A DNA stretch of 64,000 bases from Bacillota bacterium (GTDB taxonomy: Bacteria; Bacillota; SHA-98; UBA4971). Location: positions 16,096-80,095 of the forward strand of contig DAOSZN010000003.1 of assembly GCA_035593725.1 (NCBI GenBank). Reading direction: 5' to 3'. Numbering within the stretch: position 1 is the first letter of the stretch; each line of letters starts with the position of its first letter. A model generated the notes under the pieces. It made no database searches. It saw only the letters and a list, made by a program, of their open reading frames with translations, and was not told where the DNA came from. A program made the position numbers and the translations under genes. This document shows, piece after piece, positions 8,953-37,600 of this stretch.

Positions 8953-9765
8953 TTGAGAGCTGACTCATATGTAGTTGGAATTGACGTAGGGTCCTCTGCA
9001 ACCAAGGGAGTCCTCCTTCTGGACGGACAACTCGTGTCAACTTTCATGCTTCCCACAGGAACGGATCTAAATGCCACAGCCGGAGAATGCATAGAGCATC
9101 TGCTTCAAAGCGAAGGATTGACTGAAAAGGACCTTATGTACATAGTGTCAACAGGTTATGGGCGGGCCCAAGTCGAAGCTGCTGACAGAACAATCACGGA
9201 AATCACGTGTCACGGCAGAGGAGCGAAGGCCTTAGCCCCCCGGGCCGGACTTGTGATAGATATCGGAGGCCAAGACTCAAAAGTCATTCGCCTTGATGAA
9301 GACGGGATGGTAGCGGATTTCGTGATGAACGACAAATGCGCTGCAGGAACAGGAAGGTTCCTTGAGGTAATGGCAGACCGATTAGAAACGTCTCTCATGG
9401 ACTTCGGGCGTATGTGGAGAGCAGCGAAGAAACCGGCACAGATATCAAGCACTTGTACAGTATTCGCTGAATCCGAGGTAATCAGTCTTTTGTCCGGAGG
9501 CATGGCGCCTTGTGCAATAATCCGCGGCTTGTGCGATGCAGTAGCCGACCGGCTGCTTGGGATGGTTCACAGAGTGGGACTCGCACCTGATGTCGTTATG
9601 ACCGGCGGGGTCAGCAAGAATGCAGGCGTTAGGCTTTCTCTCGAGAAGAAGCTGGCACTTAAGGTGACAGTGCCTGACCTGTCACAGTTCGCAGGGGCAT
9701 ACGGTGGAGCAATAATCGGATATGAACTGGCGAGGCGGGAGTATGCGCAGGGCGGCTTGCGGTAG
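8953..9765 (+). CDS. CoA-substrate-specific enzyme activase (BadF/BadG/BcrA/BcrD/HgdC ATPase family)
   Basis: 270 aa. VVGIDVGSSATKGVLL is an ASKHA-fold phosphate-1 motif, followed by DIGGQDSKVI…NDKCAAGTGRFLE. TTG start is 7 nt after AGGAG. Confidence 0.8.
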   Translation: MRADSYVVGIDVGSSATKGVLLLDGQLVSTFMLPTGTDLNATAGECIEHLLQSEGLTEKDLMYIVSTGYGRAQVEAADRTITEITCHGRGAKALAPRAGLVIDIGGQDSKVIRLDEDGMVADFVMNDKCAAGTGRFLEVMADRLETSLMDFGRMWRAAKKPAQISSTCTVFAESEVISLLSGGMAPCAIIRGLCDAVADRLLGMVHRVGLAPDVVMTGGVSKNAGVRLSLEKKLALKVTVPDLSQFAGAYGGAIIGYELARREYAQGGLR

Positions 9766-12085: not shown

Positions 12086-13696
12086 CTAGACCGCCTCCTC
12101 CCTGGCTCTGCCTGCCATCATTAATCCGAACTCGGCGTCAGAAGCATCAGGTGGCAAGATCCCGGCAAGCCTGCCTCGATAAACGATGGCGACTCTGTCG
12201 CATATCTTGCGCAGCTCACCAAGCTCACTGGAAGTCATAATTATAGTCACGTTATGCTCTCTATTGAGGCGCACCAAGAGATCTAAGACAAGTCTCTTAG
12301 CGCCGACGTCAATACCTCGCGTCGGCTCGGAAACAAAAAGAATCTCAGGGTCAAGGGCAAGAGCCTTTGCTACACAAACCTTTTGCTGATTGCCACCGGA
12401 AAGGCTCCGCACAGGTTGAGTCGGACCCAGACATCTGATGTCCAGTTTACGTATCATCTCCTCGGAATAAGTCCTAAGTTCCCTTCTGTCTTCCAGCCTG
12501 AGCCCAGGCAGGAAATGAGGCCGGGGACGCAGAAACTTGTGTTGCGCCTGCATGGCAGTAACCCCGATATTCCTCTCAATAGGCTCATCAAGCAGCAGGC
12601 CGACGCCGCGTCTGTCTTCAGACACAAACGCAAGCCCCTTCAGAAGAACTTGCTCAGGCGAATTGAGCGGGATATTGTCTCCGTTCTTGCTGACCCTGCC
12701 TGAAGCCGGGTAAAGGCCCATTATTCCATTTGCAATACCTAACTTTCCATGGCCGGCAAGCCCTCCGATGCCGAGGATTTCGCCACGTCGGACAGACAAG
12801 GATAGGCCACGGACCATCTCGCCTGGCATATCCACTACGAGGTTCTCAATGGTGAAGGCTAAATCCTCATCACTTGGCTCCTTGTCCCGAGCAGGAAGGT
12901 CTACCTTTTCTACCTTCCTTCCCACCATTAACTCAGCGATTCTCTCAACAACAGCTTCATCCCTATTTAATCTTGCTACAATCTCGCCGTCACGAAGCAC
13001 TGTAATCCTGTCCGCTATAGCCATGACTTCATCTAAGCGGTGTGTGATGAAAAGAATCGCAATACCATCTGCAGCAAGCCTACGCAGCGAACCCAAGAGA
13101 CGATCAGCTTCAGTTTCAGTTAAGACAGCGGTAGGTTCGTCAAAGACCAAGATCTTGACTTCCTTCTTATCAACTTCTCTGGCAATCTCAATAAACTGCA
13201 TATATCCTACGGGGAGGCCTGCAACAGGCAGCCATTCGTCAATAGACAGATCGAGACGATCCAAAGCGTGCCTGGCATCCTTTCGCATAGCGGGAATATC
13301 CAGATAGTCTAAGCTTTGGGACCGAAACAGCCTACTGAGAGCATTCTTACGCGTTGTTTCGCGGTTTAACTTAATGTTTTCCGTAATAGTAAATCCCGGT
13401 ATCAACATGAATTCCTGGTGAACCATACCGATCCCCGCTTGCATAGCTTCAGCAGGAGATAGAAGCTCCACCTTTTCTCCGTCAATGAGTATTTCCCCGG
13501 AAAAGCCGCCTGTGCTATGAATTACAGGCATGCCGAAAAGGATATTCATGAGGGTTGACTTTCCTGCGCCATTCTCACCTACAAGCGCATGAATCTCACC
13601 GGGATAAAGGTCTATGGAGACATCGTTTAGGACGGTGTTGCCAAAGTACTGTTTTGTGATGCCCTTCATTTCCAGGACTTGTTGTGCTCGTTCCAT
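12086..13696 (-). CDS. ABC transporter ATP-binding protein with tandem ATPase domains (CUT2 / nucleoside importer type)
   Basis: 536 aa. Walker A GENGAGKST in the first domain and a second nucleotide-binding domain GLAGHGK…LSGGNQQK, as in RbsA/NupA-like ATPases. Confidence 0.9.
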   Translation of the reverse strand: MERAQQVLEMKGITKQYFGNTVLNDVSIDLYPGEIHALVGENGAGKSTLMNILFGMPVIHSTGGFSGEILIDGEKVELLSPAEAMQAGIGMVHQEFMLIPGFTITENIKLNRETTRKNALSRLFRSQSLDYLDIPAMRKDARHALDRLDLSIDEWLPVAGLPVGYMQFIEIAREVDKKEVKILVFDEPTAVLTETEADRLLGSLRRLAADGIAILFITHRLDEVMAIADRITVLRDGEIVARLNRDEAVVERIAELMVGRKVEKVDLPARDKEPSDEDLAFTIENLVVDMPGEMVRGLSLSVRRGEILGIGGLAGHGKLGIANGIMGLYPASGRVSKNGDNIPLNSPEQVLLKGLAFVSEDRRGVGLLLDEPIERNIGVTAMQAQHKFLRPRPHFLPGLRLEDRRELRTYSEEMIRKLDIRCLGPTQPVRSLSGGNQQKVCVAKALALDPEILFVSEPTRGIDVGAKRLVLDLLVRLNREHNVTIIMTSSELGELRKICDRVAIVYRGRLAGILPPDASDAEFGLMMAGRAREEAV

Positions 13697-15936: not shown

Positions 15937-16172
15937 AATAACAAAGCCCTGGGCAATAGACCTCAGGGCTCTAATCTCTACAGTGTTCAAAGTGCGACAA
16001 GCGTTTCGCGTTAGCTTGCGACCTTCTCCCATCCGGACTGTACCGTCGGTGCCGGTTTTGCGCCGGCTCAACCGCATTCGCGGCTCGTGGACTTGCCTTT
16101 CGGCATTACCACCGGTCGGGAATTGGCTGGGAACTCCAGCCTCACCCTGCCCCGAAGATCTACATATTGGCT
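15937..16172 (-). ncRNA. FMN riboswitch (RFN element) with terminator-type expression platform
   Basis: The minus-strand RNA reads CUUCGGGGCAGGGUGA…UUCCCGACCGGUGGUA…GCCGACGGUACAGUCCGGAUGGGAGAAGG, matching the RFN consensus. It is followed by hairpin AGCCCUG-N12-CAGGGCU plus UUUGUUAUU at 15937-15971. Confidence 0.85.
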
Positions 16173-24404: not shown

Positions 24405-27124
24405 TTCTCCGCTCACTTACCGTTTCCGGGCTGCGCTGTTTTAGAAATCCCATAGAGCTTAAAGATTTCAGTGAAGGCATAAACATCATCTACGGACCGA
24501 ACGAGTCAGGGAAATCCACACTCGTTACAGGACTCGCTCTGGCATTTTTGAATCGTCATGATATGACCGGTGATGCCATAGAGGCGTTCCGCCCTTGGGG
24601 GACTTCTCTCAGCCCTCTTATTCGTACTGAATTCATGTTCGGAGATAAGCGATATTGCTTAGAAAAAGGCTTTCTCGACAATGCAAGAAGCGTTCTCTCT
24701 GAATGGGACGGCATTCGCTACCAACGCCTTGACGAGGGAAAAGCGGCTGATGATAAGGTACGGCGGATGATGCAAGCGGAATTTTCAGGAAGGGGACTGT
24801 CTAAAAATACACAATGGGGTCTTGCGCATCTTCTTTGGATGCCACAGGGTACAGACCGCTTCAGCAGCCCCTCCCTTGCCGAACCCGGCGTCGAGGATTA
24901 TTTCCGCCAAGCCATGGGCGCTACAATCTTCAGTAAAAAGGATGACAAGCTACTCGGCTTAATCAGCAAGAGATATGCGGATATCTTTACTCCTAAAACA
25001 GGAGACTTTAAAGCAAATTCAGAGGTGAGTCTTGCCAAACAGAAAGTTGCAGCTGCCAAAGATCAATTAGATAGAGCCCTCCGCGACTTGGAAGCAATAC
25101 GGGAGGCAGAAAGTGACCTCCTGTTACACGATTCCCGCCTCGCCGAACTTGAGACTCGGTCCGCCAACCTGAAGCAGGAAAGGCAGAATCTCACAGGCCA
25201 ACTTGAGCGTATCAGGGACCTCAAATCCGAGCGGGATACAATGAAGGCCAGGTTGCAAACTGCCACTCAAGCATGGGAGACCGTGAAAAAGGAGTGGCAG
25301 CAAGTTTCGAATCTTAAGAAAACGATAGCGGATACAAGATTAGAAATAGCCCGGAAGGAAAAGGCTGTCATTCCGCTCAAGGCTGACCTTGATAAGGTGT
25401 CGAAAGAGCTTGACTCCAAGCGCGCCATTGAGAAAGACCTTGAAAAAGGCATCAAAGAAACCAATAAGGATTTTCAGAAAGCCAACGACCTGGAGCAAGC
25501 AAAGAATCGTCTGGAATCCACGAGGAATCTTGCAGCACAGGTCAAGTCAGCCCAGGATTTGACCAAGAAAATATCGGACCTCGAAAAAGAACTAAGCAAG
25601 CAACCTTGTCCCGGTATCACTGATGTGAAATCCGCTGAGGATTCAAAATCCCGCATAGACGCAAGGGAGGCCGAGGCACGTGCGCAGGGGCTCGCTATAG
25701 ATGTCACAGCCTACACAGACTTCGACATGATTGTAAGTACATCCGAAGATGAGAAGACTTACACAATCCGTCCTAGCGAACCCTTATCCCTCGTGTCTGC
25801 TGACAGGATGACCTTAGATATACGCGGACTCGGGCGAATTGAAATCAAGTCAGGCTCTACTGATGTGAAGAGGCTCCTGGAGCAGATTTCAACAGAGAAG
25901 AGAGCGCTCAAAGAGATCTTGGACAGGTACGGGGTGGAGACCCTATCTGACCTTAAGGAACGCTACAATTGGGGAGTCCGCCAAGATTTGCAGCTTAACA
26001 CCTTAAGAGACAATCTTAAAACTACCTTAGGCTCAGGAAACACCCTGAGGCTTCTTGAATCCCAGCTTCAAAAGGAAGAGACAACTCTCCGGGAACAGTG
26101 TTTGAGACTGGGTATCTCGCAAGAAGAATTGGCTGAAGCTGAGACGCCTGATGTTGACCTCCTCAAGAACCGTCTTGATGGCTTAAATAAGCAGCGGGAT
26201 GATTTGGGAAGAGAAATACTTGAGTTAGACAAGCTGGAGCAGAGTCTTTCTAAACAAGTCGCAAAACTGGAGCAAGAAATCAGTAACCTTCGAACCTCAG
26301 CTGAAATATCTTCCGGTGAACTCAAGAGGCGCCTTGAATCCTATGACAACAACGAAGAAAAGCTAAACTCTGCTTTGACTGAGAAGGAAGAGGGTAAGAA
26401 CTGTATAGAAAAGCACTTGGCGGAGCTGGAGCGGCAGATTCCGAAAAACGCAGCTGAAATCGAGCGGAACGCCATTCGGCTTGAGCAAAAGATAAAGGAA
26501 ATCGATGAGGAAACGATACCCGGACTTCGCGATAAGCGGGCTGTCCTCAGAGGTAAACTGGACGAAGCAGGTAACCGTGGATTATACAGCGAGGCAGTCC
26601 AATGTGAAGAGGCTCTTAAGATCGCTGAGAGCAACCAGGCAATTGCCCTACGGAAGGCCCAAGGGATACGGCTTCTCCAATACCTGGGTCGCACTAGGAA
26701 AGATCAGTTGCTTGACTCCCTGACTGAGCCCATCCGGGACGAGGCGACAAGGATATTCCGGATAATTACAGGCTCGCCGGAACGATCTCTTGAACTCTCC
26801 TCTGACCTCTCACTTTCGGGCATAAAGATCGATCAAGAAGACTCCGAAACCATCGGACCTATATGGGACTTTTCCATAGGCACTCAAGAACAACTCATGA
26901 TGTCTGTCAGGTTAGCGCTGGGACATTTTCTCGGACAGGTAGAACGGCAACTCGTGGTGCTGGATGACCCTCTTGTAAACACTGATCCCCACAGGCTCGA
27001 ACGAATCTTGGATCTCCTCGAAGCTGCATCAAAGACACTTCAGATCATAATCCTTACCTGTCATATAGACAGGTACGAAGGCATCTTAGGCAAGAGATTT
27101 AACATTACGGAGGCGACCCTTTAA
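24401..27124 (+). CDS. YhaN/SbcC-like SMC-fold ATPase (Rad50 family)
   Basis: 907 aa. N-terminal Walker A GPNESGKST, a long coiled-coil middle, a C-terminal signature-like SIGTQEQLMMSVRLAL, and Walker B/D-loop VVLDDPLVNTD. Confidence 0.7.
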   Translation: MILRSLTVSGLRCFRNPIELKDFSEGINIIYGPNESGKSTLVTGLALAFLNRHDMTGDAIEAFRPWGTSLSPLIRTEFMFGDKRYCLEKGFLDNARSVLSEWDGIRYQRLDEGKAADDKVRRMMQAEFSGRGLSKNTQWGLAHLLWMPQGTDRFSSPSLAEPGVEDYFRQAMGATIFSKKDDKLLGLISKRYADIFTPKTGDFKANSEVSLAKQKVAAAKDQLDRALRDLEAIREAESDLLLHDSRLAELETRSANLKQERQNLTGQLERIRDLKSERDTMKARLQTATQAWETVKKEWQQVSNLKKTIADTRLEIARKEKAVIPLKADLDKVSKELDSKRAIEKDLEKGIKETNKDFQKANDLEQAKNRLESTRNLAAQVKSAQDLTKKISDLEKELSKQPCPGITDVKSAEDSKSRIDAREAEARAQGLAIDVTAYTDFDMIVSTSEDEKTYTIRPSEPLSLVSADRMTLDIRGLGRIEIKSGSTDVKRLLEQISTEKRALKEILDRYGVETLSDLKERYNWGVRQDLQLNTLRDNLKTTLGSGNTLRLLESQLQKEETTLREQCLRLGISQEELAEAETPDVDLLKNRLDGLNKQRDDLGREILELDKLEQSLSKQVAKLEQEISNLRTSAEISSGELKRRLESYDNNEEKLNSALTEKEEGKNCIEKHLAELERQIPKNAAEIERNAIRLEQKIKEIDEETIPGLRDKRAVLRGKLDEAGNRGLYSEAVQCEEALKIAESNQAIALRKAQGIRLLQYLGRTRKDQLLDSLTEPIRDEATRIFRIITGSPERSLELSSDLSLSGIKIDQEDSETIGPIWDFSIGTQEQLMMSVRLALGHFLGQVERQLVVLDDPLVNTDPHRLERILDLLEAASKTLQIIILTCHIDRYEGILGKRFNITEATL

Positions 27125-27329
27125 CAGGGTCGCCCCTGCGACATCTTCTTTTGAAACCTTCACAAAACATTGACTTTATCCCCACAAATTCTTGACAACC
27201 TCTTCGTTAATATATAACAGTGCGACCAAAACGAGGAAACAAACCGGAGAGCCTTTACCGGCAGACTTAAAACCATATTCAGCTCGTGTCAATAGAAGGT
27301 TTTGCGTATTGAAGGAGGGACCATTAGGG

Positions 27330-28472
27330 ATGTCAACGCAGAGACGTCCGAATCCGCCGTGGTTACGCAAGATAATAGCGACTGCATGTGCGCTGGCGAT
27401 TATAACAATATCTCCTACGACAACAGCGTTTTCTTTCTCTGCATCGGCAAGTGCTACAAAATTAGAACCGCAAGGGATAGAAGTAAGCCTTGAAGAATGT
27501 CGTAGTCTTGCACTGGAACACAGCGCCAGCATGCTTCTGGCCGAAAGCGCAGTAGAAGATGCTAAGCTGTCCTTAGAGCAAACAGAAGCCACAAACCTCA
27601 CAAAACCATCTCCCACATCACTTTACCAAGCCAAGATGAGTCTTGAATCCGCCTCTAAAAACCTGGAAATAACTAAGCAGGACGTGATCTTAAGTACAGA
27701 TCAGCTTTATTACTCGCTTCTCAGAGCGGAACACTTAGTATCCATCTCGGAACAGGCTCTTGCCCTTGCTGAAAGGCAATTTGAGATAGCAGTGGCCAAA
27801 GAAACAGTGGGCATGGCCACAAAGCTTGATATTATGAGAGCGGAAAACCAGACTGCTTCAGCACGCAACAGTCTTCAAAGCGCTATTCTAAGCAGAGACC
27901 TTGCAATGGTCACGCTAAACCAAGCTATCGGGTTTGACTCGGAGACAATTCTTTCTCTGCGCGATGAGTTTTCCTATGAAAAAACTGGGGAACCGGATCT
28001 TAACGCCTCGATAGAGTTGGCTTTAGCGAATCGGGTTGAGATGGCTCAGGCGCGATCAGCAGTGGAGATTGCGGACATGAATGTAAAACTTTTGGATAAC
28101 AACTTTACACCCAGATTGACATATGAACGCGCCAAGCTCGCAGCAGCCGATGCCAGGGTTAAGTTTGCCGAGCAACAGAGTAAAATAGCTCTCGCAGTCC
28201 GCCAAGCTTATGTAGCCCTCAAACAAGCAGAGGCCAAAGTGGAACTTGCCGGATCCAAAGTCAGCGAGGCACGCGAAAACCTACGTATAACCCAACTTCT
28301 CTTCGAAGCGGACATGGCTACAAACGTGGAAGTCCTGTCTGCGCAAAACCAGTATACCCAAAGTCAAATAGACGCAATTCAGGCCATATACGACTATAAC
28401 ATAACAAGATCGCAGTTTAAGCGCGCTATCGGTGATACGGCCGGACTTCCCGGAGGTGTCTCTGAGCCATGA
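27330..28472 (+). CDS. TolC-family outer-membrane efflux protein (OMF) 1
   Basis: ATG at 27330 is 10 nt after GAAGGAGGG and encodes the signal peptide MSTQRRPNPPWLRKIIATACALAIITI. The coiled-coil-rich repeats are typical of OMF proteins. The ORF-track start at 27192 is upstream and unlikely. Confidence 0.7.
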   Translation: MSTQRRPNPPWLRKIIATACALAIITISPTTTAFSFSASASATKLEPQGIEVSLEECRSLALEHSASMLLAESAVEDAKLSLEQTEATNLTKPSPTSLYQAKMSLESASKNLEITKQDVILSTDQLYYSLLRAEHLVSISEQALALAERQFEIAVAKETVGMATKLDIMRAENQTASARNSLQSAILSRDLAMVTLNQAIGFDSETILSLRDEFSYEKTGEPDLNASIELALANRVEMAQARSAVEIADMNVKLLDNNFTPRLTYERAKLAAADARVKFAEQQSKIALAVRQAYVALKQAEAKVELAGSKVSEARENLRITQLLFEADMATNVEVLSAQNQYTQSQIDAIQAIYDYNITRSQFKRAIGDTAGLPGGVSEP

Positions 28473-29962
28473 GAAGACCACGAATTGCAAGCAAATCGCA
28501 CGGTATGCGTAAATCACAAGCTCGGATCTTTATCAAAGCCCTGGCCTTTTCATGTGCGCTTATCCTGGTCCTCCCATGGCAATCAGCCCTTGAGGCTTCC
28601 TCATGCGCCAAGCTCCATGAGTTGACGCTTGCCGACGCTCTTGAACTGGCTGTTTTGCAAAACCCTGAGATTGTCGCAGGAAATCAAGCCTTAGAACTCA
28701 GCGCGTCCAAGCTACGCGAAAGCTACGGAATGACGAAGCCAAAGATTACCCTCCAAGGATCCGGTTATGGGACGTCAACTTCCTTGTCTACCGGGGTTTC
28801 TACATCTAGCTGCGGTTCATCAGTAAAAGTCACAATAAGTCAGTCTCTGCCAGGCGCTTTACCTGAACCGTTCAGCGTCGGATTGTCATCTGTTGAGCTT
28901 GCTGCCATTAATTTATATGAAACCGAACTTGACCTTGCCAAGACCAAGCAAAAAGTCCTGCTTGACACAATCACAGCTTACCTGAACGTCCTCAAATCAG
29001 AGCAGCTGAAAGACTCAAATGACAGCGCCTATGAAAAGGCGGCACGCCTTCTGGATGAGGTAGAGAGCAAGTTAGCCTTAGGTGTGGCAACTCAACTCGA
29101 CCTCCTGAAAGCCCAAAATCAACTGGACCAGGTGACATTCAGCAGACAGAAAACAGATGATGACCTACGAGGCGCAATGCGTTCTTTAGCTCTCATATTG
29201 GGCCTGCCTCCTGAAACTCGGTTCCAACTGTCAGACGCTCTTGATGTGCCGGGATTATCCCAAATAGAAGAAGATGAGTATAGCCTCGAAGGACTCACAG
29301 CTATTGCCCTGGACAATCGTGTTGAAATCAAGCAGGCCGATTTATCGTATCAAAAAGTCAAAGCCTCACTGGAAACAACAAGGAGGTCTCTGAAGCCTTC
29401 TGTAAACCTCTTCGCAAGCTACTCGCGTCCGGAAAACCCTTCCGTTTCCGCTTCCGCCTCACTTAACCTTGCATCAGGCGACGCCGGTTGGAAGGTGTCG
29501 TTAGATAGCGGACAGTCAACTGAATCAGCTCCGGACAAAGGATTTATGCCGAAATCCACATCCACAATGGGTATTGACATATCCTTTGCCCTTTGGGACG
29601 GAGGAACAGCAGATGAGAAACTTAAGCAGGCGGAGATAAACCTCAAAATGCAAGAGGCTGCCATAGAGCGTCAGAGACAGGCAATAGCGGAAGATGTGTA
29701 TGTCGCCTTGACCGGACTAAAACAGACCCTCACAAGACTCCGGCTTGCCGAACAAGCTGTTCTTGAAGCTGAAGAACTCTTTGGTATAACAGAAGCCCGC
29801 TTTGAGGCAGGCGCAGGGGTGGCAGCTGAAGTTCTTGATGCTGCACAATCCCTGGCTGATTCAAGATCCGGGGTAGTTGAGGCCTTATTCGATTATTACC
29901 TGGCACAAGCACGTCTCGCAAAAGCCATGGGCATACTTGGCATTCGGGGGTGGAAGGGATGA
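28469..29962 (+). CDS. TolC-family outer-membrane efflux protein (OMF) 2
   Basis: 497 aa. Signal-like N-terminus, with MRKSQARIFIKALAFSCALILV as a possible internal start at 28505. Two OMF repeats. Overlaps gene 1 by 4 nt. Confidence 0.7.
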   Translation: MRRPRIASKSHGMRKSQARIFIKALAFSCALILVLPWQSALEASSCAKLHELTLADALELAVLQNPEIVAGNQALELSASKLRESYGMTKPKITLQGSGYGTSTSLSTGVSTSSCGSSVKVTISQSLPGALPEPFSVGLSSVELAAINLYETELDLAKTKQKVLLDTITAYLNVLKSEQLKDSNDSAYEKAARLLDEVESKLALGVATQLDLLKAQNQLDQVTFSRQKTDDDLRGAMRSLALILGLPPETRFQLSDALDVPGLSQIEEDEYSLEGLTAIALDNRVEIKQADLSYQKVKASLETTRRSLKPSVNLFASYSRPENPSVSASASLNLASGDAGWKVSLDSGQSTESAPDKGFMPKSTSTMGIDISFALWDGGTADEKLKQAEINLKMQEAAIERQRQAIAEDVYVALTGLKQTLTRLRLAEQAVLEAEELFGITEARFEAGAGVAAEVLDAAQSLADSRSGVVEALFDYYLAQARLAKAMGILGIRGWKG

Positions 29963-31524
29963 GAGGCAAAGGCACAGTAAATGCCGGGAACAAGAAGAGA
30001 CAGTGGTGGATGCTCCTTGTAATCCTTGCTGTGTGCGCGGTAGCAGTGGCAGGATACGGGTTATCAAAGAGTATTTCGGAGCGCCGAAAAACCGCGGCAT
30101 CCGAAGACTTGTATCAGCTTGTTCCGGTGGGACACGGCTCCGTAACTTTAAAGATTACGTCTTCCGGCACAGTAAAACCGGGGTCAGTCTATCAGGTTAC
30201 ACCTAAGCTCAACTCCACAATTAACGATATATTTGTGAAGCCCGGGGACATTGTAAGGAAAGGTCAACTCTTGGCAACTCTTGACAAAACAGACGTTTTG
30301 GAGCGCCTCCAAGAAGCCAAAGATAATCTGGCTATTGCTGAAGCTAAACTTCAAGAAGCGGAAAGCCAAGCCGACCTGGCGCCTGTCCAAGCCAGACTTC
30401 AGGTAGAGCAGGCAAGGGTCAACCTTCTGAATGCTGAGGCTAAGTTGGCCCAGCTTAAGGAGGGCGCCAAACCTCAAGACATAGATCAGGCTAAGACACA
30501 AGTCAGACAAGCACAACTTAGCTGTGAAAACGCGGAAAATGAATACAATCGGTACAAGATACTATTTGAGCAAGGAGCAGTAACCCGTCAACAGCTGGAA
30601 AACGCAGAGAATAAACATCTAACCGCAATTGAGTCTCTCAAAGCTCTGGAGCAGAAGTTGGATCTTCTCCTGGCAGAACCTGATCCGGCAGAGCTTGCTG
30701 CGGCCGAAGCGTCAGTGGCCCAGGCCGGAACAAACCTCCAAGTGGCAGAGGCAAATGAGGCATCCCTCAATACCAGGCAGCAGCTCCTCACAGCGAAAGC
30801 ACAGGTGGCTCAGGCAAGAAATGCGGCTAGTGCAGCGGAACGCAACGTAATTCTTACGAACGTCGTATCACCTGTAGACGGGACGATAACCGAAGTCATA
30901 GCTCAGCCAGGGTTGACAGTAGGGCCGTCTAATACGCTTTTTGTGGTCACGGATCTCAAACACTTGAACGTCATAGCTAACGTTGATGAAACTGATGTCC
31001 ATAGCGTTAAAGCAGGCCAAGCGGCAAATGTGAAGGTAGAATCGATTCCCGGAAGAGTATTCAAAGGAGTCATTGAAAGCGTCGCTGAGCAAGGCAAAGT
31101 CATCAGCAGCGTAGTGTACTTTGAAGTGACGGTGAAAGTCACCGATGACAGCGGAGCCCTGAAAGCCGGCATGACAGCGGATGTAGATATTATCACAGAT
31201 GAGCGGTCCGATGTGCTCATCATTCCCAATTCAGCGCTGGAGAACTTCAGAGGATTCACAGCTGCCCGCGTACTTAACGAAAACGGGGAACCTTTCTTCA
31301 AACGTGTGGAACTTGGTATATCTGACGGGACAATAACAGAGGTTATTTCCGGGCTGGAAGCAGGTGAAATGGTGGCAATTCCCCATCCCGGCACAGGCGT
31401 CGCACGCACGACCTCCGACAGGATTCAGGAAGGGGCGCGAAACCCGATGATGCAGTTTATTCCCGGCGGAGTCATGCCGGGTCCTGTTGAACCTGGCAGA
31501 AGCAGGTTCTCAGGTGAAAGGTAG
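29950..31524 (+). CDS. Efflux periplasmic adaptor subunit (HlyD/MacA family)
   Basis: 524 aa. N-terminal membrane anchor, a long coiled-coil hairpin, and beta-barrel and membrane-proximal domains. Confidence 0.8.
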   Translation: MEGMRGKGTVNAGNKKRQWWMLLVILAVCAVAVAGYGLSKSISERRKTAASEDLYQLVPVGHGSVTLKITSSGTVKPGSVYQVTPKLNSTINDIFVKPGDIVRKGQLLATLDKTDVLERLQEAKDNLAIAEAKLQEAESQADLAPVQARLQVEQARVNLLNAEAKLAQLKEGAKPQDIDQAKTQVRQAQLSCENAENEYNRYKILFEQGAVTRQQLENAENKHLTAIESLKALEQKLDLLLAEPDPAELAAAEASVAQAGTNLQVAEANEASLNTRQQLLTAKAQVAQARNAASAAERNVILTNVVSPVDGTITEVIAQPGLTVGPSNTLFVVTDLKHLNVIANVDETDVHSVKAGQAANVKVESIPGRVFKGVIESVAEQGKVISSVVYFEVTVKVTDDSGALKAGMTADVDIITDERSDVLIIPNSALENFRGFTAARVLNENGEPFFKRVELGISDGTITEVISGLEAGEMVAIPHPGTGVARTTSDRIQEGARNPMMQFIPGGVMPGPVEPGRSRFSGER

Positions 31525-32325: not shown

Positions 32326-33530
32326 ATCTACTGGAATGCATCAGTGTGGCACTGATAAGCGTTAGAAGCAATAAGATGCGGTCAGGCCTTACTATGCTGG
32401 GTGTAATCATAGGAGTCGCTGCAGTCGTTATAATGGTCGCAATCGGCGAAGGCGCTAATCTCCAGGTTTCGTCGCAGATTCAGAGGCTTGGTTCAAATCT
32501 TCTCGTTATTACGCCAGGCAGGACAAGAGAACCCGGCGCACGCACCATGGGTGCATTCGGAAGTATGGATGTTCTAACCCTGGAGGATGTGGAAGCCATA
32601 CGTGACGAGTGTCCCTCTGTCCTTGCAGTTGCCCCTGAGATTTCAAGAGGAGTTACACTAAGGTACGGGACAGGGAGCATGCAAACCCAGCTTATAGCAA
32701 CAACCCCTGAGTACCTGTCAGTGCGAGCCTTCAATGTCGCCGAAGGAACGTTTTTCACAAACGAAGATGTGCGTTCCGCTGCCAAAGTGGCTGTGGTGGG
32801 CCAGGGTATTGCAGATGGGCTTTCACCCGGGGAAAACCTAATAGGAAAAGAAATCAAAATCGGTGAAACACGTCTTTCGGTTATAGGTGTTATGGAAACG
32901 AAAGGTCAAAGCGGGATGATGAATATAGACGATACCGTTTATATTCCGATAACAACCGCTCAAAAGCGTATCCTCGGCACAAAATATGTCCGGACAATAT
33001 ACGCCCAGGCACGTAATGCAAAATCCATGAGTTCAGCAAATGATGAGATAGTATCAGTCTTAACTACGCGGCTCGGCAAGGCTGAAGCCTTCTCCGTAAG
33101 TAACCAGGCTGATGTCCTAGAGGCAGCTCAAGATGTTACTCGCGTGTTCACCATTCTTCTTGCCGGCATCGCCGGTGTATCGCTTCTCGTCGGCGGGATC
33201 GGGGTTATGAATATAATGCTTGTTTCTGTCACTGAACGAACAAGAGAGATTGGGCTGCGAAAATCTGTGGGTGCACGGATCACCGATATTCTATTGCAAT
33301 TCCTCATCGAATCCATTGTCCTAAGCGTCGTAGGAGGGGCAATAGGCATCATCGTGGGAATTGCCGGTTCGAAGCTCGCAGCCCGGGTTACAGGATGGCC
33401 CAGTGCCATCTCTGCTGTGTCGGTACTTATTCCTTTTGCCTTTGCCGTGGCTGTCGGGCTCTTCTTCGGCATATACCCGGCAAGCAGGGCAGCAAGACTA
33501 AATCCTGTAGAAGCCTTGCGTTACGAATGA
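32322..33530 (+). CDS. MacB/FtsX-type ABC transporter permease
   Basis: 402 aa. N-terminal transmembrane helix, a large periplasmic domain, and a C-terminal FtsX bundle of three helices. Confidence 0.85.
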   Translation: MNLLECISVALISVRSNKMRSGLTMLGVIIGVAAVVIMVAIGEGANLQVSSQIQRLGSNLLVITPGRTREPGARTMGAFGSMDVLTLEDVEAIRDECPSVLAVAPEISRGVTLRYGTGSMQTQLIATTPEYLSVRAFNVAEGTFFTNEDVRSAAKVAVVGQGIADGLSPGENLIGKEIKIGETRLSVIGVMETKGQSGMMNIDDTVYIPITTAQKRILGTKYVRTIYAQARNAKSMSSANDEIVSVLTTRLGKAEAFSVSNQADVLEAAQDVTRVFTILLAGIAGVSLLVGGIGVMNIMLVSVTERTREIGLRKSVGARITDILLQFLIESIVLSVVGGAIGIIVGIAGSKLAARVTGWPSAISAVSVLIPFAFAVAVGLFFGIYPASRAARLNPVEALRYE

Positions 33531-33577
33531 TTTGCCCGGCTTTACCCAAGTGACCGCCTGATTTTCACTCTTATCCA

Positions 33578-33610
33578 GAATAAAATGACCGGGAAACCCC
33601 CGGCCTTTCC
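33578..33610 (+). terminator. Terminator after the efflux operon
   Basis: GACCGGG-AAACC-CCCGGCC hairpin followed by TTTCCGCTTCTT. Confidence 0.4.
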
Positions 33611-33622
33611 GCTTCTTAATAG

Positions 33623-33698
33623 TGGCGCGCCCGGAGGGATTTGAACCCCCGGCTTTCTGATCCGAAGTCAGACGCTCTATCCACTGAGCTACGGGCGC
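33623..33698 (-). tRNA. tRNA-Arg, anticodon TCG
   Basis: Minus-strand cloverleaf GCGCCCG-TA-GCTCAGTGGATAGAGC-G-TCTGA-CTTCGGA-TCAGA…GGGTTCAAATCCC…CGGGCGC-G-CCA. Confidence 0.9.
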
Positions 33699-34096
33699 GC
33701 TTCGTAACTTGATTCTACTTGGGCTTCAGCGTTTTGTCAATGCCGTAGAAGTCCTGTCTTGTTAGCTTGTGGTAATTTCATCCCATAGACAGTCCGAGAG
33801 AAGGTGTTTTATTACTGTTTGAAGAGGTTCTACTGTAAGCGTCACCCTTCACTCTAAACCTTGACTGCTTTGGCTCTGATTCTCACTGTAAGCCTTCTTA
33901 TTAGGTGTGGCCGATTTTCGGCCACAAATTTTTCTTGGCTGTATGGTTTTCTGCCACTTTTGGAGGGGCGACAGGTTCAGTGGTCGAGAATCAGCCAGCA
34001 GGAGGCTTATCAGTGACTGATTTCCAGACACGATTTCGCTTCAGGTGCCGGAATATCGAACATCTGATCGCCGGAAATAGGTTCGTTGGGGGATTG

Positions 34097-34180
34097 CTGA
34101 CAGAAAGTCAGGCACATTTTCCAAAAAGGTGACAGAAAGTCAGGCACATTTTCTAAAAAAGTGACAGAAAATCTTCCACC
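34097..34180 (+). repeat. Tandem repeat of about 32 nt, 2.3 copies, each containing palindrome TGAC-N5-GTCA
   Basis: TGACAGAAAGTCAGGCACATTTTCCAAAAAGG, then TGACAGAAAGTCAGGCACATTTTCTAAAAAAG, then TGACAGAAAATCTTCC…, read directly from the sequence. Confidence 0.8.
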
Positions 34181-34572
34181 TGAGCCTCAAGAAGGCACCA
34201 AAACCCTTCGTCTGCCCAAAAGTGTGGTCGAAAAGCAGACACCCTTGCAGTTGGAGGTGGTTGAAAACCTGCCACTTACCAGCTTTTTGCTGCGAAAATC
34301 AAAAACGATGGCTGAAATTAAGGCATGGCTGCAAAAAATGTGGTCGAGAATCGACCATCTCCTTCTTACTTACAGCGACAGCGGGAGTACGGCTTATCCC
34401 ATCTTCAATAGCGTAATCCTAGGCGGGGGTTATTTTACACTTCCGATAATTTCGCGTGAATGTTTTTGTGGTTCCGATTGAGGCTGTAGACACGGCTTTA
34501 CTGAAGGTGGGGGCTATTTTATTTGACGCTCACGTTCTATTGAATACACTAAGGGCGTAAAAGAAATGAAAA

Positions 34573-34667
34573 TGGCGGAGAGAGGGGGATTCGAACCCCC
34601 GCGCGGTTTGTTGCACCGCCTAAAGGTTTAGCAAACCTTCCCCTTCAGCCAGCTTGGGTATCTCTCC
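34573..34667 (-). tRNA. tRNA-Ser, anticodon GCT
   Basis: Acceptor GGAGAGA/TCTCTCC, anticodon stem AAGGT/ACCTT with loop TTGCTAA, a long variable arm, T-arm GGGGG-TTCGAAT-CCCCC, and CCA. Confidence 0.85.
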
Positions 34668-34825
34668 GCTCAGGTTAACTTATTTATTCTATTTGGAGCA
34701 GTATCCTGCTGCAAGCTCTGCCCCGATACTTGATAATATAGCATATCCAATGCCTAAGGGCAAGATCTTTCCAGACTAACTTTTCTTCTTCAGAATCTCC
34801 CCACGTCATGAAAGTATTGGTATAT

Positions 34826-35742
34826 CTAAGTTTTCTTTTCCTTCTTCTTCGGTTCAGGGCTAACAACCCAAACAGCAAGCGCTGCAGGTATGGAAATAGC
34901 AGCATACAGCGAAAAAGATGCCGGCCAACTAAGAATTCCGCTGCCCGCCCCAAGAACAGGACTTAAAACCCTGCCCAACCCGCTAGACGCTTCAAGCATG
35001 CCTGTCGCTGAACCGGACTGAGGACTGACATAGCAGGATAAACCGTAGAACAAAATAACTAAGAACAGATGGCGGAGGAGGTGGGATTCGAACCCACGAG
35101 GGCCATGAAGACCCTGGCGATTTTCAAGACCGCTCCCTTCATCCGCTCGGGCACTCCTCCGCAGATCACCGGGTCTTAAAGGGGCTAAACAGAGCCGTTC
35201 AAGCTAAGTCCCAAGGAACCCGACAACGTAATTATAGCACCTGCCGATTCCACAGGCAAGTAGCCCGAAAATCCACTGAGCAATTGAGAGTAGCTGGAAG
35301 AAAACATGAAAAGCTGCTCTTGAGGATGAGATAGGGGTAGAGCTTGATGCAGGAGGAATGTTCCTATTGATAGGAACACGCTTGCAGTAATACCCACGCG
35401 TCCCCCGTATGTTTCAACCAAGAGCTGTGGTATGGTTTCACAGTTCGAATTATGTAAGGGTTTGGCCAGGATTAGCCCAAGGACAAGACATGCAATACCG
35501 CCGGCCAAAGTAAACCACCAAGCGGAAAATCCATACTTGAAAGCCAGTTGAGCTGTGCCAATGGTGGCTGCCCCTCCTACCAAAGTGCCGAGGATAGTCG
35601 CGGCTACTAACATAGGGCCGGCTTGTTTGCCACCTACTGAAAAATCACTTACAGACTTAATCTTCCGGCCTGAGCACACCCCTATTACAGAAATAATTGC
35701 AAGAGTCGCTGCCATGAAAACAATGTGTAACGGTGTAATCAT
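34826..35742 (-). pseudogene. Disrupted sodium:solute symporter (SSS family) gene split around a tRNA-Ser gene
   Basis: The 35185-35742 ORF encodes a typical SSS N-terminus (GRKIKSVSDFSVGGKQAGP…GTAQLAFKYGFSAWWFTLAGG) that degenerates after about 140 aa. The 34826-35053 ORF encodes a typical SSS C-terminus. About 220 aa of the middle are missing, and tRNA-Ser(TGA) sits in between. Confidence 0.5.
35070..35160 (-). tRNA. tRNA-Ser, anticodon TGA
   Basis: Acceptor GGAGGAG/CTCCTCC, anticodon stem GCGGT/ATCGC with loop CTTGAAA, a long variable arm, T-arm GTGGG-TTCGAAT-CCCAC, and CCA. Confidence 0.85.
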
Positions 35743-35964
35743 AGTAGTTCATAAGACTCCTTTGTAATGTCGTCTATTACTTTTTGCCATCCAATATCAA
35801 ACTGATTATGTAGCCATTACCATGAGGTTAGGCGTGCGGTCAATCGCCGGAATAGAAGCCTCATCGCCTACAAGGAGGCCTCTATTCTCTGTCAGCGAAA
35901 TTGAGGCCTCCGTTATTCTTCTTTCTTTGGACCTCAGTATCCTGCGAGATCCGGCATTAATCTA

Positions 35965-37284
<1,320 letters not shown>

Positions 37285-37299
37285 TCAGCACAAACATAT

Positions 37300-37600
37300 G
37301 ACAAAGCCCCTCGCCCCCTCAAACCGGGACGAGAGGCTTACCTCCCGCGTTGCCACCCCATTTGGTTTAAGATAGCCTGCGCTGTGCCCAGGCACGATAA
37401 ATCTCAAGACCCACTCTGGCGTACGCTAACGGGTACACCCGGCCAGGCTTACTCAGCATTATGCCTGCCTTTCAACCCGCAGCTCAAAGGGGGATTCAGC
37501 TTGGCTTGGCACCGGTTCTCACCGTACCCGGCTCTCTTTAGCGCTAAGACCATAGCTTACTCATCCTTATCATCGCAAATAGCTTCTCTTTTTAAGTTTG
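37300..37600 (-). ncRNA. T-box leader (tRNA-sensing riboswitch) controlling serS
   Basis: Minus-strand RNA has Stem-I features AGAGA…GAUGAUAAGGAUGAGUA…. A specifier region contains the Ser codons UCU and AGC. The T-box sequence is GGGGUGGCAACGCGGGAG. A terminator GCCUCUCGUCCC-GGUUUGA-GGGGGCGAGGGGC plus UUUGUC follows. Promoter TTGAGT-17-TATAAT is at 37606-37634. Confidence 0.75.

Follow-up and report, generated by a model that had tools for sequence, protein, structure and literature searches.

A serS-linked tRNA cluster with relics of two transporter genes and a MITE copy bearing IS66-family hallmarks in an uncultured Bacillota lineage

In Bacillus subtilis, pdxS, serS and trnS are located near the replication origin. 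Mobile elements of the IS66 family carry inverted repeats of 20–30 bp that start with GTAAGCG, are flanked by 8-bp direct repeats and have been described mostly from proteobacterial members (PMC11946415), one example of an IS66-type repeat being GTAAGCGTCCGG... (PMC12888890). Here, we analyzed a stretch of 64,000 nt from a Bacillota bacterium (hereafter the window), in which a serS neighborhood of this kind and an element with such ends occur at the same locus. The locus is probably a conserved serS-linked tRNA cluster carrying the debris of three independent events, namely a deletion, the decay of an MFS transporter gene and the insertion of a MITE. The cluster and its putative signals are as follows.

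33587-33605, minus strand: terminator-like hairpin and T-run, immediately downstream of tRNA-Arg(TCG)
33623-33698, minus strand: tRNA-Arg(TCG), intact, CCA encoded (ARAGORN and Rfam)
33712-33740, minus strand: promoter-like site TTGACA-17-TAGAAT (11/12) upstream of tRNA-Arg, a consensus match only
34573-34667, minus strand: tRNA-Ser(GCT), intact, CCA encoded (ARAGORN and Rfam)
34735-34763, minus strand: promoter-like site TTGCCC-17-TATATT with TG, upstream of tRNA-Ser(GCT), a consensus match only
35070-35160, minus strand: tRNA-Ser(TGA), intact, CCA encoded (ARAGORN and Rfam)
35231-35259, minus strand: promoter-like site TTGCCT-17-TATAAT with TG, for tRNA-Ser(TGA), inside the conserved block 35229-35272
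35965-37245, minus strand: serS (seryl-tRNA synthetase), on which the conserved cluster is anchored
37322-37582, minus strand: T-box leader upstream of serS (Rfam 103.8 bits, gathering score 93)

The three minus-strand tRNA genes named in a preliminary description of this DNA were all recovered by ARAGORN and by Rfam, with tRNA scores of 74, 54 and 51 bits, and CCA is encoded in each of them. The Rfam search, both at the gathering threshold and at E<=1, returned tRNAs, the T-box and noise matches overlapping tRNAs only. The tRNA-Arg(TCG) gene is identical to the tRNA-Arg(ACG) gene of the window at 69 of 77 positions. Each of the three tRNA genes has its own promoter-like site, and these sites may well be working promoters; the block surrounding the last of them (35229-35272, minus strand) shares 91% identity with positions 2057-2100 of the close relative L095, which is ~85% identical to the window at the nucleotide level.

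In relatives with 66–72% SerRS identity, tRNA-Ser(tga) follows serS after ~50–120 nt. In several relatives (L015, L016, L019, L021 and L022), tRNA-Ser(gct) comes next, up to ~3 kb further on, and in L016, L019, L021 and L022 it is followed in turn by tRNA-Arg. In the window, pdxS is found on the 5' side of serS. Judged from these comparisons, the order serS, tRNA-Ser(TGA), variable genes, tRNA-Ser(GCT) and tRNA-Arg is a conserved Bacillota arrangement, and the position of tRNA-Ser(TGA) beside serS is the ancestral one. The following remains of protein-coding genes lie within this order.

34826-35053, minus strand: 75-aa ORF with an MFS transporter relic, homologous stretch 34868-35002
35273-35352, minus strand: deletion-junction filler of 80 nt without counterpart in L095, belonging to the tail of the 185-aa reading frame
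35353-35742, minus strand: sodium:solute symporter relic, codons 1-130 only, within the 185-aa ORF at 35185-35742

The preliminary description had taken the 185-aa and 75-aa ORFs for the N- and C-terminal parts of one sodium:solute symporter gene split around tRNA-Ser(TGA). The 185-aa ORF (35185-35742, minus strand) does match the N-terminus of Pfam SSF (PF00474; E 3.6e-10, profile positions 2-91 of 406), but the match is limited to residues 35-127, and a tblastn search of 33400-36000 in any frame with five symporter homologues detected no symporter sequence past codon 130 (position 35353). The N-terminal assignment therefore holds for the first 130 codons only, and the remaining 55 codons of the ORF are not of symporter origin. 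The 75-aa ORF matches MFS_1 (PF07690; E 2.9e-9, 36.7 bits against a cut-off of 33.4, profile positions 115-183 of 347), a different family, and so is not the C-terminus of a symporter. The two fragments thus belong to SSF and MFS_1, respectively, which is the very outcome that the preliminary description had named as speaking against its split gene. Its statement that 33540-35180 contains no credible protein gene agrees with our searches, where the ORFs of this interval had no credible family match, the MFS fragment excepted.

With 58% identity over 45 aa, the MFS relic corresponds to residues 155-199 of an MFS protein of 446 aa from L015. L015 is the closest SerRS relative, its MFS gene is intact and lies between its two tRNA-Ser genes, and among 80 relatives it alone has an MFS gene at that position; its tRNA genes are on the strand opposite to the MFS gene, unlike those of the window. 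A protein search with the MFS fragment returned the fragment itself as the sole match. Positional orthology of the relic with the L015 gene is plausible. The relic, of 45–57 codons, is probably what decay has left of an MFS gene that stood between the tRNA-Ser pair.

In L095, the end of serS is followed by a 220-aa truncated symporter gene, a 309-aa PALP-domain (cysK-like) gene and tRNA-Ser(TGA), inside which the L095 sequence stops. The homology between the window and L095 ends exactly at 35353 and restarts at 35272. Whereas this junction is directly visible in the alignment, its direction is one that we infer: the window appears to have lost a stretch of ~1.3 kb that began at symporter codon 131 and took in the cysK-like gene. 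Such a deletion between serS and tRNA-Ser(UGA) would have left a 130-codon stub of the symporter, joined in frame to unrelated sequence running over the tRNA promoter. The dN/dS of the stub relative to L095 is 0.10, which indicates that purifying selection acted during most of the divergence; either the truncation is recent or the stub is still constrained, and the stub may retain a residual function. The comparison with close relatives that had been proposed earlier showed a conserved tRNA order, a symporter that is truncated in L095 as well and, in L015, an intact gene that is MFS. The remaining features are located in the spacer between tRNA-Arg(TCG) and tRNA-Ser(GCT).

33827-33834, unstranded: 8-bp target-site duplication, left copy GTTCTACT, 7/8 match to 34534-34541
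33835-34533, plus strand: 699-nt non-coding MITE with ends GTAAGCGTCA.../...TGACGCTCAC, a dispersed multi-copy repeat with IS66-family-like ends
33905-34364, plus strand: conserved core of 460 nt, ~12 degenerate units of ~32 nt, each opening with a 19-nt palindrome
33946-34164, unstranded: patch holding all 18 clustered substitutions relative to otherwise identical metagenome contigs
34098-34170, plus strand: 32-nt tandem repeat, 2.3 copies, within the core
34534-34541, unstranded: 8-bp target-site duplication, right copy GTTCTATT, 31 nt short of the 3' end of tRNA-Ser(GCT)

The repeat-rich spacer of 870 nt is mostly one 699-nt element (33835-34533). Its ends read GTAAGCGT.../...ACGCTCAC, and the right end across copies is ...ACGCTYAC. 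In the window, the left inverted repeat GTAAGCGTCA and the reverse-complemented right end, GTGAGCGTCA, agree at 9 of 10 positions; in another copy, L105, the inverted repeats match at 18 of 23 positions and the target duplication is perfect (GTCAATAG / GTCAATAG, 8/8). The consensus of the ends is GTAAGCGTAAAATAGCCCCCACC. Of seven loci with both flanks available, two have a clear target duplication, the other ends being degenerate or rearranged. The palindromes and tandem repeats mentioned in the preliminary description are real: besides the 32-nt tandem repeat, 33907-34358 holds about nine occurrences of the imperfect 19-nt palindrome GTGnnnGAnnnTCnnnCAC, versus six weak matches in the other 63 kb, and the 699-nt element accounts for the tandem repeat and for almost every palindrome. 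Hairpins at 33907-33925 and 34340-34358 mark the two limits of the core.

By matches of one 25-mer, the spacer was linked to other loci, including two each on the long contigs Ga0208198_1000003 and Ga0208198_1000041. The element was found at at least nine distinct loci with 87–98% identity across the core; the core is 93–98% identical to that of the window, without indels, at eight of the nine, and partial, with indels and 87% identity, at the ninth (L110). Copies differ in the arms that connect the 460-nt core to the inverted repeats, so that the element is mosaic and the core could have a history of its own. Other copies sit between housekeeping genes (a Pfam search of the large ORFs beside two copies returned housekeeping families only), and three of the nine lie, in the same orientation, downstream of tRNA genes. 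Several metagenome contigs break inside or beside the element.

ORFs within the repeat were considered as genes and rejected. They had no Pfam or NCBIfam match, substitutions among the copies were distributed over the codon phases as 31/25/28, without bias, stops occur in every frame of the core, and relatives of the internal ORF were found in this organism only, where two of the element ORFs carry locus tags of one MAG (GX872_).

The element is a MITE with IS66-family hallmarks. It matches the MITE criteria listed in PMC11578231, being 699 nt long without a transposase gene and having inverted repeats, a target duplication and multiple copies dispersed in one genome, and it has the GTAAGCG inverted repeats and the 8-bp direct repeats of IS66. 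An IS200/IS605-type or REP-like element, suggested by the hairpins at the core ends, was dropped for the outer GTAAGCG repeats and the 8-bp duplications. In the window and the 110 loci examined, no autonomous IS66-family element (tnpA/tnpB/tnpC) with matching ends was detected; mobilization would presumably be in trans, by a transposase, probably of the IS66 family, encoded elsewhere in the genome. As for the direction and order of the events at the locus, both of which we infer, insertion of the MITE, whose terminal repeats begin GTAAGCG, would have taken place 39 nt downstream of tRNA-Ser(GCU), with an 8-bp duplication of the target, and the empty site before insertion is expected to read ...GAAGAGGTTCTAYTGAATACAC....

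Several other explanations were weighed against this history. That a single symporter gene was split by tRNA-Ser(TGA) or by insertion of a mobile element is extremely unlikely: both ORFs are hydrophobic, transporter-like and on the same strand, they flank the tRNA gene and the 185-aa ORF starts as an SSF protein, but the 75-aa ORF is MFS_1 and corresponds to a central part of an MFS protein (155-199 of 446), nothing after codon 130 is matched by the five symporter homologues, the rest of the symporter and the cysK-like gene of L095 are on the serS side of the tRNA, and the tRNA-Ser(TGA) gene next to serS is the ancestral order. The broader proposal of a scar left by integration, excision or deletion survives in part, given the ~1.3-kb deletion, the MFS relic and the transposed MITE, but not as integration of a phage, plasmid or ICE at a tRNA gene. 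A prophage, ICE or genomic island attached at the 3' end of tRNA-Ser(GCT), with the palindrome array as a leftover attachment arm or partition site, would account for the element lying 39 nt from the tRNA 3' end, for the orientation of the three copies downstream of tRNA genes and for the resemblance of the phased 19-nt palindromes, ~32 nt apart, to protein-binding arrays. We nevertheless regard it as very unlikely. No direct repeat derived from the tRNA was found, the flanking 8-bp duplication being non-tRNA sequence; no integrase domain was present among the called genes within ~10 kb of the locus, nor a phage gene within 10 kb; and the BLASTN check of the spacer that had been suggested (run in distant mode) gave no match in phage or plasmid collections. 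Near-identical copies are flanked by housekeeping genes at loci remote from any tRNA, two copies combine inverted terminal repeats with 8-bp duplications, which indicates transposition rather than site-specific integration, and the order serS/tRNA-Ser/tRNA-Ser/tRNA-Arg is itself conserved among relatives.

Two further alternatives concern the interior of the MITE. The 460-nt core could be a functional module, such as a structured non-coding RNA, a bidirectional terminator or a protein-binding array, instead of inert cargo, as 84 columns vary among its full-length copies without an indel along the 460 nt, different arms are attached to the same core, compensatory changes are present in the terminal hairpin (GTGGCCG/CGGCCAC versus GTGATCG/CGATCAC), the hairpins at both core ends look like terminators facing incoming transcription, and the folding z-scores are -3.3 and -2.9. 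However, the spacer (33699-34572) has no Rfam 15 match even at E<=1, folding is favored equally on both strands, as for palindromic DNA, hairpins are disrupted in several copies (for example, unit 12 in L099, L100 and L102), the family is confined to one organism and 90–95% identity is too little variation for covariation, so that we consider this module improbable. It is quite improbable that the core is selected cargo in the form of a portable bidirectional terminator/insulator or protein-binding array, spread by IS66-type ends with a preference for sites just downstream of tRNA genes; this reading would build on the ~12 phased palindromes, on the outward-facing terminator-like hairpins at the two core ends and on the lack of indels in full-length cores. 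As for the patch at 33946-34164, 18 differences fall within 219 nt compared with 0–4 in the remaining ~21 kb. At 13–17 of the 18 sites, other copies in the genome share the allele of the window, whereas the alternative allele has ~10 private variants, which is the pattern expected from tract copying. The patch is probably a gene-conversion tract that comes from another copy of the element. Targeted hypermutation by a diversity-generating system, or an assembly artefact, is an unlikely source, even though the differences are so concentrated, repeats of this kind are prone to mis-assembly, with several contigs ending in or beside this one, and assembly mixing of reads from other copies would yield the same pattern. 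A diversity-generating retroelement was rejected, since the substitution spectrum is mixed and not adenine-specific, only two alleles occur across six contigs and no reverse transcriptase is encoded nearby.

The locus is one of ordinary gene decay of two unrelated transporter genes plus a copy of an element, and the main value of these results is in annotation. The 185-aa and 57/75-aa 'genes' of public metagenome annotations are pseudogene relics of two different transporters, and the 81–118-aa 'hypothetical proteins' annotated here and at further loci result from reading through a non-coding repeat. The element represents a MITE family not described before, of an uncultured Bacillota lineage from anaerobic digesters; it involves no new biological principle but breaks contigs in assemblies and shows copy-to-copy exchange, which matters for strain-level MAG analysis.

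Compared with known systems, the locus resembles the Bacillota serS/tRNA-Ser neighborhood in its succession of T-box, serS, tRNA-Ser(UGA), tRNA-Ser(GCU) and tRNA-Arg with pdxS 5' of serS, and differs from it in that serS and tRNA-Ser(UGA) are separated by 805 nt of symporter relic instead of the ~50–120 nt of relatives and in that the Arg tRNA is TCG, not ACG. As in transporter pseudogenes made by deletion, truncated SSF and MFS frames stand without the rest of the gene and the junction is defined against a relative, while the dN/dS of 0.10 sets the symporter stub apart from ordinary transporter pseudogenes. Like IS66-derived MITEs, the element is small, multi-copy and intergenic, lacks a transposase gene and has GTAAGCG ends and, in two copies, 8-bp duplications. 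Unlike them, it has mosaic arms and no cognate IS66 in the loci examined, its interior is an array of ~12 units of ~32 nt with 19-nt palindromes instead of a deleted transposase gene, and its host is an uncultured Bacillota lineage whereas most IS66 members described so far are proteobacterial.

The three minus-strand tRNA genes of the preliminary description were recovered by both ARAGORN and the Rfam tRNA model, and the stretch around them described there was likewise found to hold no real protein genes. The features of the locus were as follows.

33623–33698, minus strand: tRNA-Arg(TCG), 74 bits with the Rfam tRNA model
33835–34533: 699-nt repeat element, flanked by GTTCTACT and GTTCTATT
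34573–34667, minus strand: tRNA-Ser(GCT), 54 bits
34826–35053, minus strand: 75-aa ORF with an MFS_1 match (E 2.9e-9)
35070–35160, minus strand: tRNA-Ser(TGA), 51 bits
35185–35742, minus strand: 185-aa ORF with a Pfam SSF match at residues 35–127 only
35965–37245, minus strand: serS, upstream of the tRNAs
37322–37582, minus strand: T-box leader (103.8 bits), also upstream of the tRNAs

All three tRNA genes encode the 3' CCA. By consensus match only, a sigma-70-like site lies 5' of each and a terminator-like hairpin lies 3' of tRNA-Arg. In distant Bacillota (66–72% SerRS identity), serS is separated from tRNA-Ser(tga) by about 50–120 nt, tRNA-Ser(gct) comes next, at most about 3 kb on, in L015, L016, L019, L021 and L022, and tRNA-Arg follows in the latter four. 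Given this shared order, the tRNA islet is an inherited cluster and not an insertion into a gene. The MAG GCA_029551185.1 and many metagenome contigs from anaerobic digesters encode proteins identical to SerRS and the 185-aa ORF product, all with an unchanged arrangement; the locus is stable within the species. The cluster-end Arg tRNA (33623–33698) has the anticodon TCG where the relatives have ACG; the window's own tRNA-Arg(ACG) lies 31 kb off at 2154–2230 and is identical to it at 69 of 77 positions.

The 185-aa and 75-aa ORFs had been read as parts of one symporter gene split around tRNA-Ser(TGA). The N-terminal symporter stub is genuine, with the SSF match covering profile positions 2–91 of 406 in agreement with NCBIfam. 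In tblastn searches of 33401–36000 with five symporter homologues, homology was confined to codons 1–130, ending at base 35353, and no further symporter sequence was found in any frame. The 75-aa ORF exceeds the curated cut-off for MFS_1 (profile positions 115–183 of 347), and its NCBIfam matches are MFS efflux proteins. The fragments thus come from different families, an outcome that the preliminary description had itself named as refuting its interpretation, and no symporter sequence lies past codon 130; the split-symporter reading is wrong.

When the 185-aa ORF was used as a protein query, it retrieved a 220-aa symporter protein (P0002) with 96% identity over residues 1–130, which continues past residue 130, unlike the window ORF, as true symporter sequence. 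Its contig, L095, shares about 85% nucleotide identity with the window and carries, in order, the end of serS, the 220-aa truncated symporter, a 309-aa PALP-domain (cysteine-synthase-like, cysK-like) gene at 1086–2015, which is wholly deleted in the window, and tRNA-Ser(TGA). The window/L095 alignment ends exactly at window 35353 and picks up again at 35272–35229, a block holding a promoter-like TTGCCT-17-TATAAT for tRNA-Ser(TGA); L095 744–2056 is thus missing from the window, and the junction carries 80 nt of filler that matches nothing in L095. Judged from this alignment, a deletion of about 1.3 kb would have removed the symporter from codon 131 onward together with the cysK-like gene. The dN/dS for codons 1–130 (window 35353–35742 versus L095 354–743) was 0.10, indicating purifying selection on the stub for most of the divergence, so that either the gene was truncated recently or its remnant has kept some function. 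The symporter of L095 is itself cut short, to 220 aa; either both genes were truncated recently and independently of each other, or constraint on the N-terminal piece persists.

The nearest relative by SerRS (L015, 72% identity) carries an intact 446-aa MFS gene between two tRNA-Ser genes, and the 75-aa relic is 58% identical to residues 155–199 of its product. Two points qualify this comparison: no other relative among the 80 has an MFS gene there, and the L015 tRNAs are opposite in strand to the MFS gene, unlike those of the window. Both L015 tRNA-Ser genes (9355–9444 and 12249–12342) are also opposite to serS, a layout differing from that of the window and the other examined relatives save L029, whose tRNA-Ser(gct) likewise runs the other way; the layout points to a local rearrangement in the L015 lineage.

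Between tRNA-Ser(GCT) and tRNA-Arg lies a spacer of 874 nt. It holds a 32-nt tandem repeat and a 19-nt imperfect palindrome, the latter in about nine copies and nearly absent elsewhere in the window, in keeping with the repeats noticed initially. No Rfam match was found in the spacer. Comparison with phage and plasmid sequences, which had been proposed as a check, found no similarity, and the suggested integration or excision scar of phage or ICE attachment gained no support. A spacer 25-mer matched nine stretches at other loci in metagenome contigs, and two long contigs were each hit in two places. Counting these matches and further copies reached via called ORFs, a 460-nt core (window 33905–34364) was present at 87–98% identity in at least nine distinct loci, eight free of indels and the ninth (L110) partial, at 87% and with indels. 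The 84 variable core columns were spread evenly over codon phases (31/25/28), stop codons occurred in every reading frame, and a gene-caller ORF inside the core had relatives in this organism only, all of which indicates that the core is not evolving like coding sequence.

Apart from one patch, the window differed from six metagenome contigs by 0–4 scattered mismatches over 13–21 kb. The patch comprised 18 substitutions of mixed spectrum and no indels, all inside 33946–34164 (219 nt, within the repeat), with one alternative allele common to all six contigs. The window allele shared 13–17 of the 18 sites with copies of the element elsewhere in the genome and 215 of 219 nt with L098, and the contig allele had about 10 private variants. 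These comparisons would most simply be explained by ectopic gene conversion in the window's strain, with another copy as the donor. Alternatively, reads of other copies may have been mixed during assembly, which would leave a pattern indistinguishable from gene conversion. Several contigs start or end in or beside the repeat (ends of L003 and L010 at window 33847–33873 and of L011 at 34315; starts of L106, L107 and L109), and the final 27 nt of L003 carry four additional mismatches; assemblies of this organism are broken up by the repeat.

The core is a phased palindrome array with terminator-like hairpins at both ends (33906–33926, plus strand; 34341–34357, minus strand); on the strand entering the core, a T-run comes after each hairpin. 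The element could thereby stop transcription arriving from both directions, tRNA-Ser(GCT) read-through among it. Three of the nine copies sit a short way, 14–350 nt, past the 3' end of a tRNA gene, in the same orientation and with the same element end toward the tRNA (tRNA-Thr in L096, tRNA-Leu-CAA in L101/L102, and the window at 34534–34572). This proximity may reflect a preference for such targets, or biased retention at safe havens; a functional role for the core is possible but unlikely.

Two TolC-like OEP proteins lie beside a MacAB-type pump at about 26000–31500 of the window (by correspondence with L001 15722–19715), and ExbB/ExbD/TonB and a secretin were found on contigs with other repeat copies (L105 3434–5531, L103 5663–6868). 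Together, these genes suggest a diderm (outer-membrane-bearing) Bacillota lineage. An FMN riboswitch at 16017–16163 (minus strand, 98.9 bits) is unrelated to the tRNA and element locus.

The full element starts with GTAAGCGT and ends with ACGCTYAC, its consensus terminal inverted repeat being GTAAGCGTAAAATAGCCCCCACC, and a 655-nt copy in L105 has a perfect flanking duplication (GTCAATAG / GTCAATAG). Without the element and one duplication copy the spacer would be about 167 nt, within the relatives' range of 17–264 nt. Other copies are placed between housekeeping genes (ABC transporter and exbB; nucleoside phosphorylase and spoIIM; dnaK; aldehyde dehydrogenase). The 23-nt terminal repeat also occurs solo or paired apart from full elements (L102 1899–1960, flanks in L096 and L099, window 34417–34444), two inverted copies sometimes forming a hairpin of about 50 nt, so the genome also bears minimal derivatives of the same ends. 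The IS66 family is characterized by 20–30 bp inverted repeats starting GTAAGCG and 8-bp direct repeats (PMC11946415; an example repeat is given in PMC12888890). No autonomous IS66 partner was found in the window or the 110 compared loci, so the transposase assignment is drawn from the element ends. The spacer element appears to be a lineage-specific MITE with IS66-like ends. In sum, the initial observation was partly right, in the tRNAs, the repeats, the lack of real genes and the N-terminal stub; the locus combines a conserved tRNA cluster with pseudogene relics of two unrelated transporters, left by deletion, and with one MITE copy, that is, ordinary genome decay plus an additional element of an already known class.
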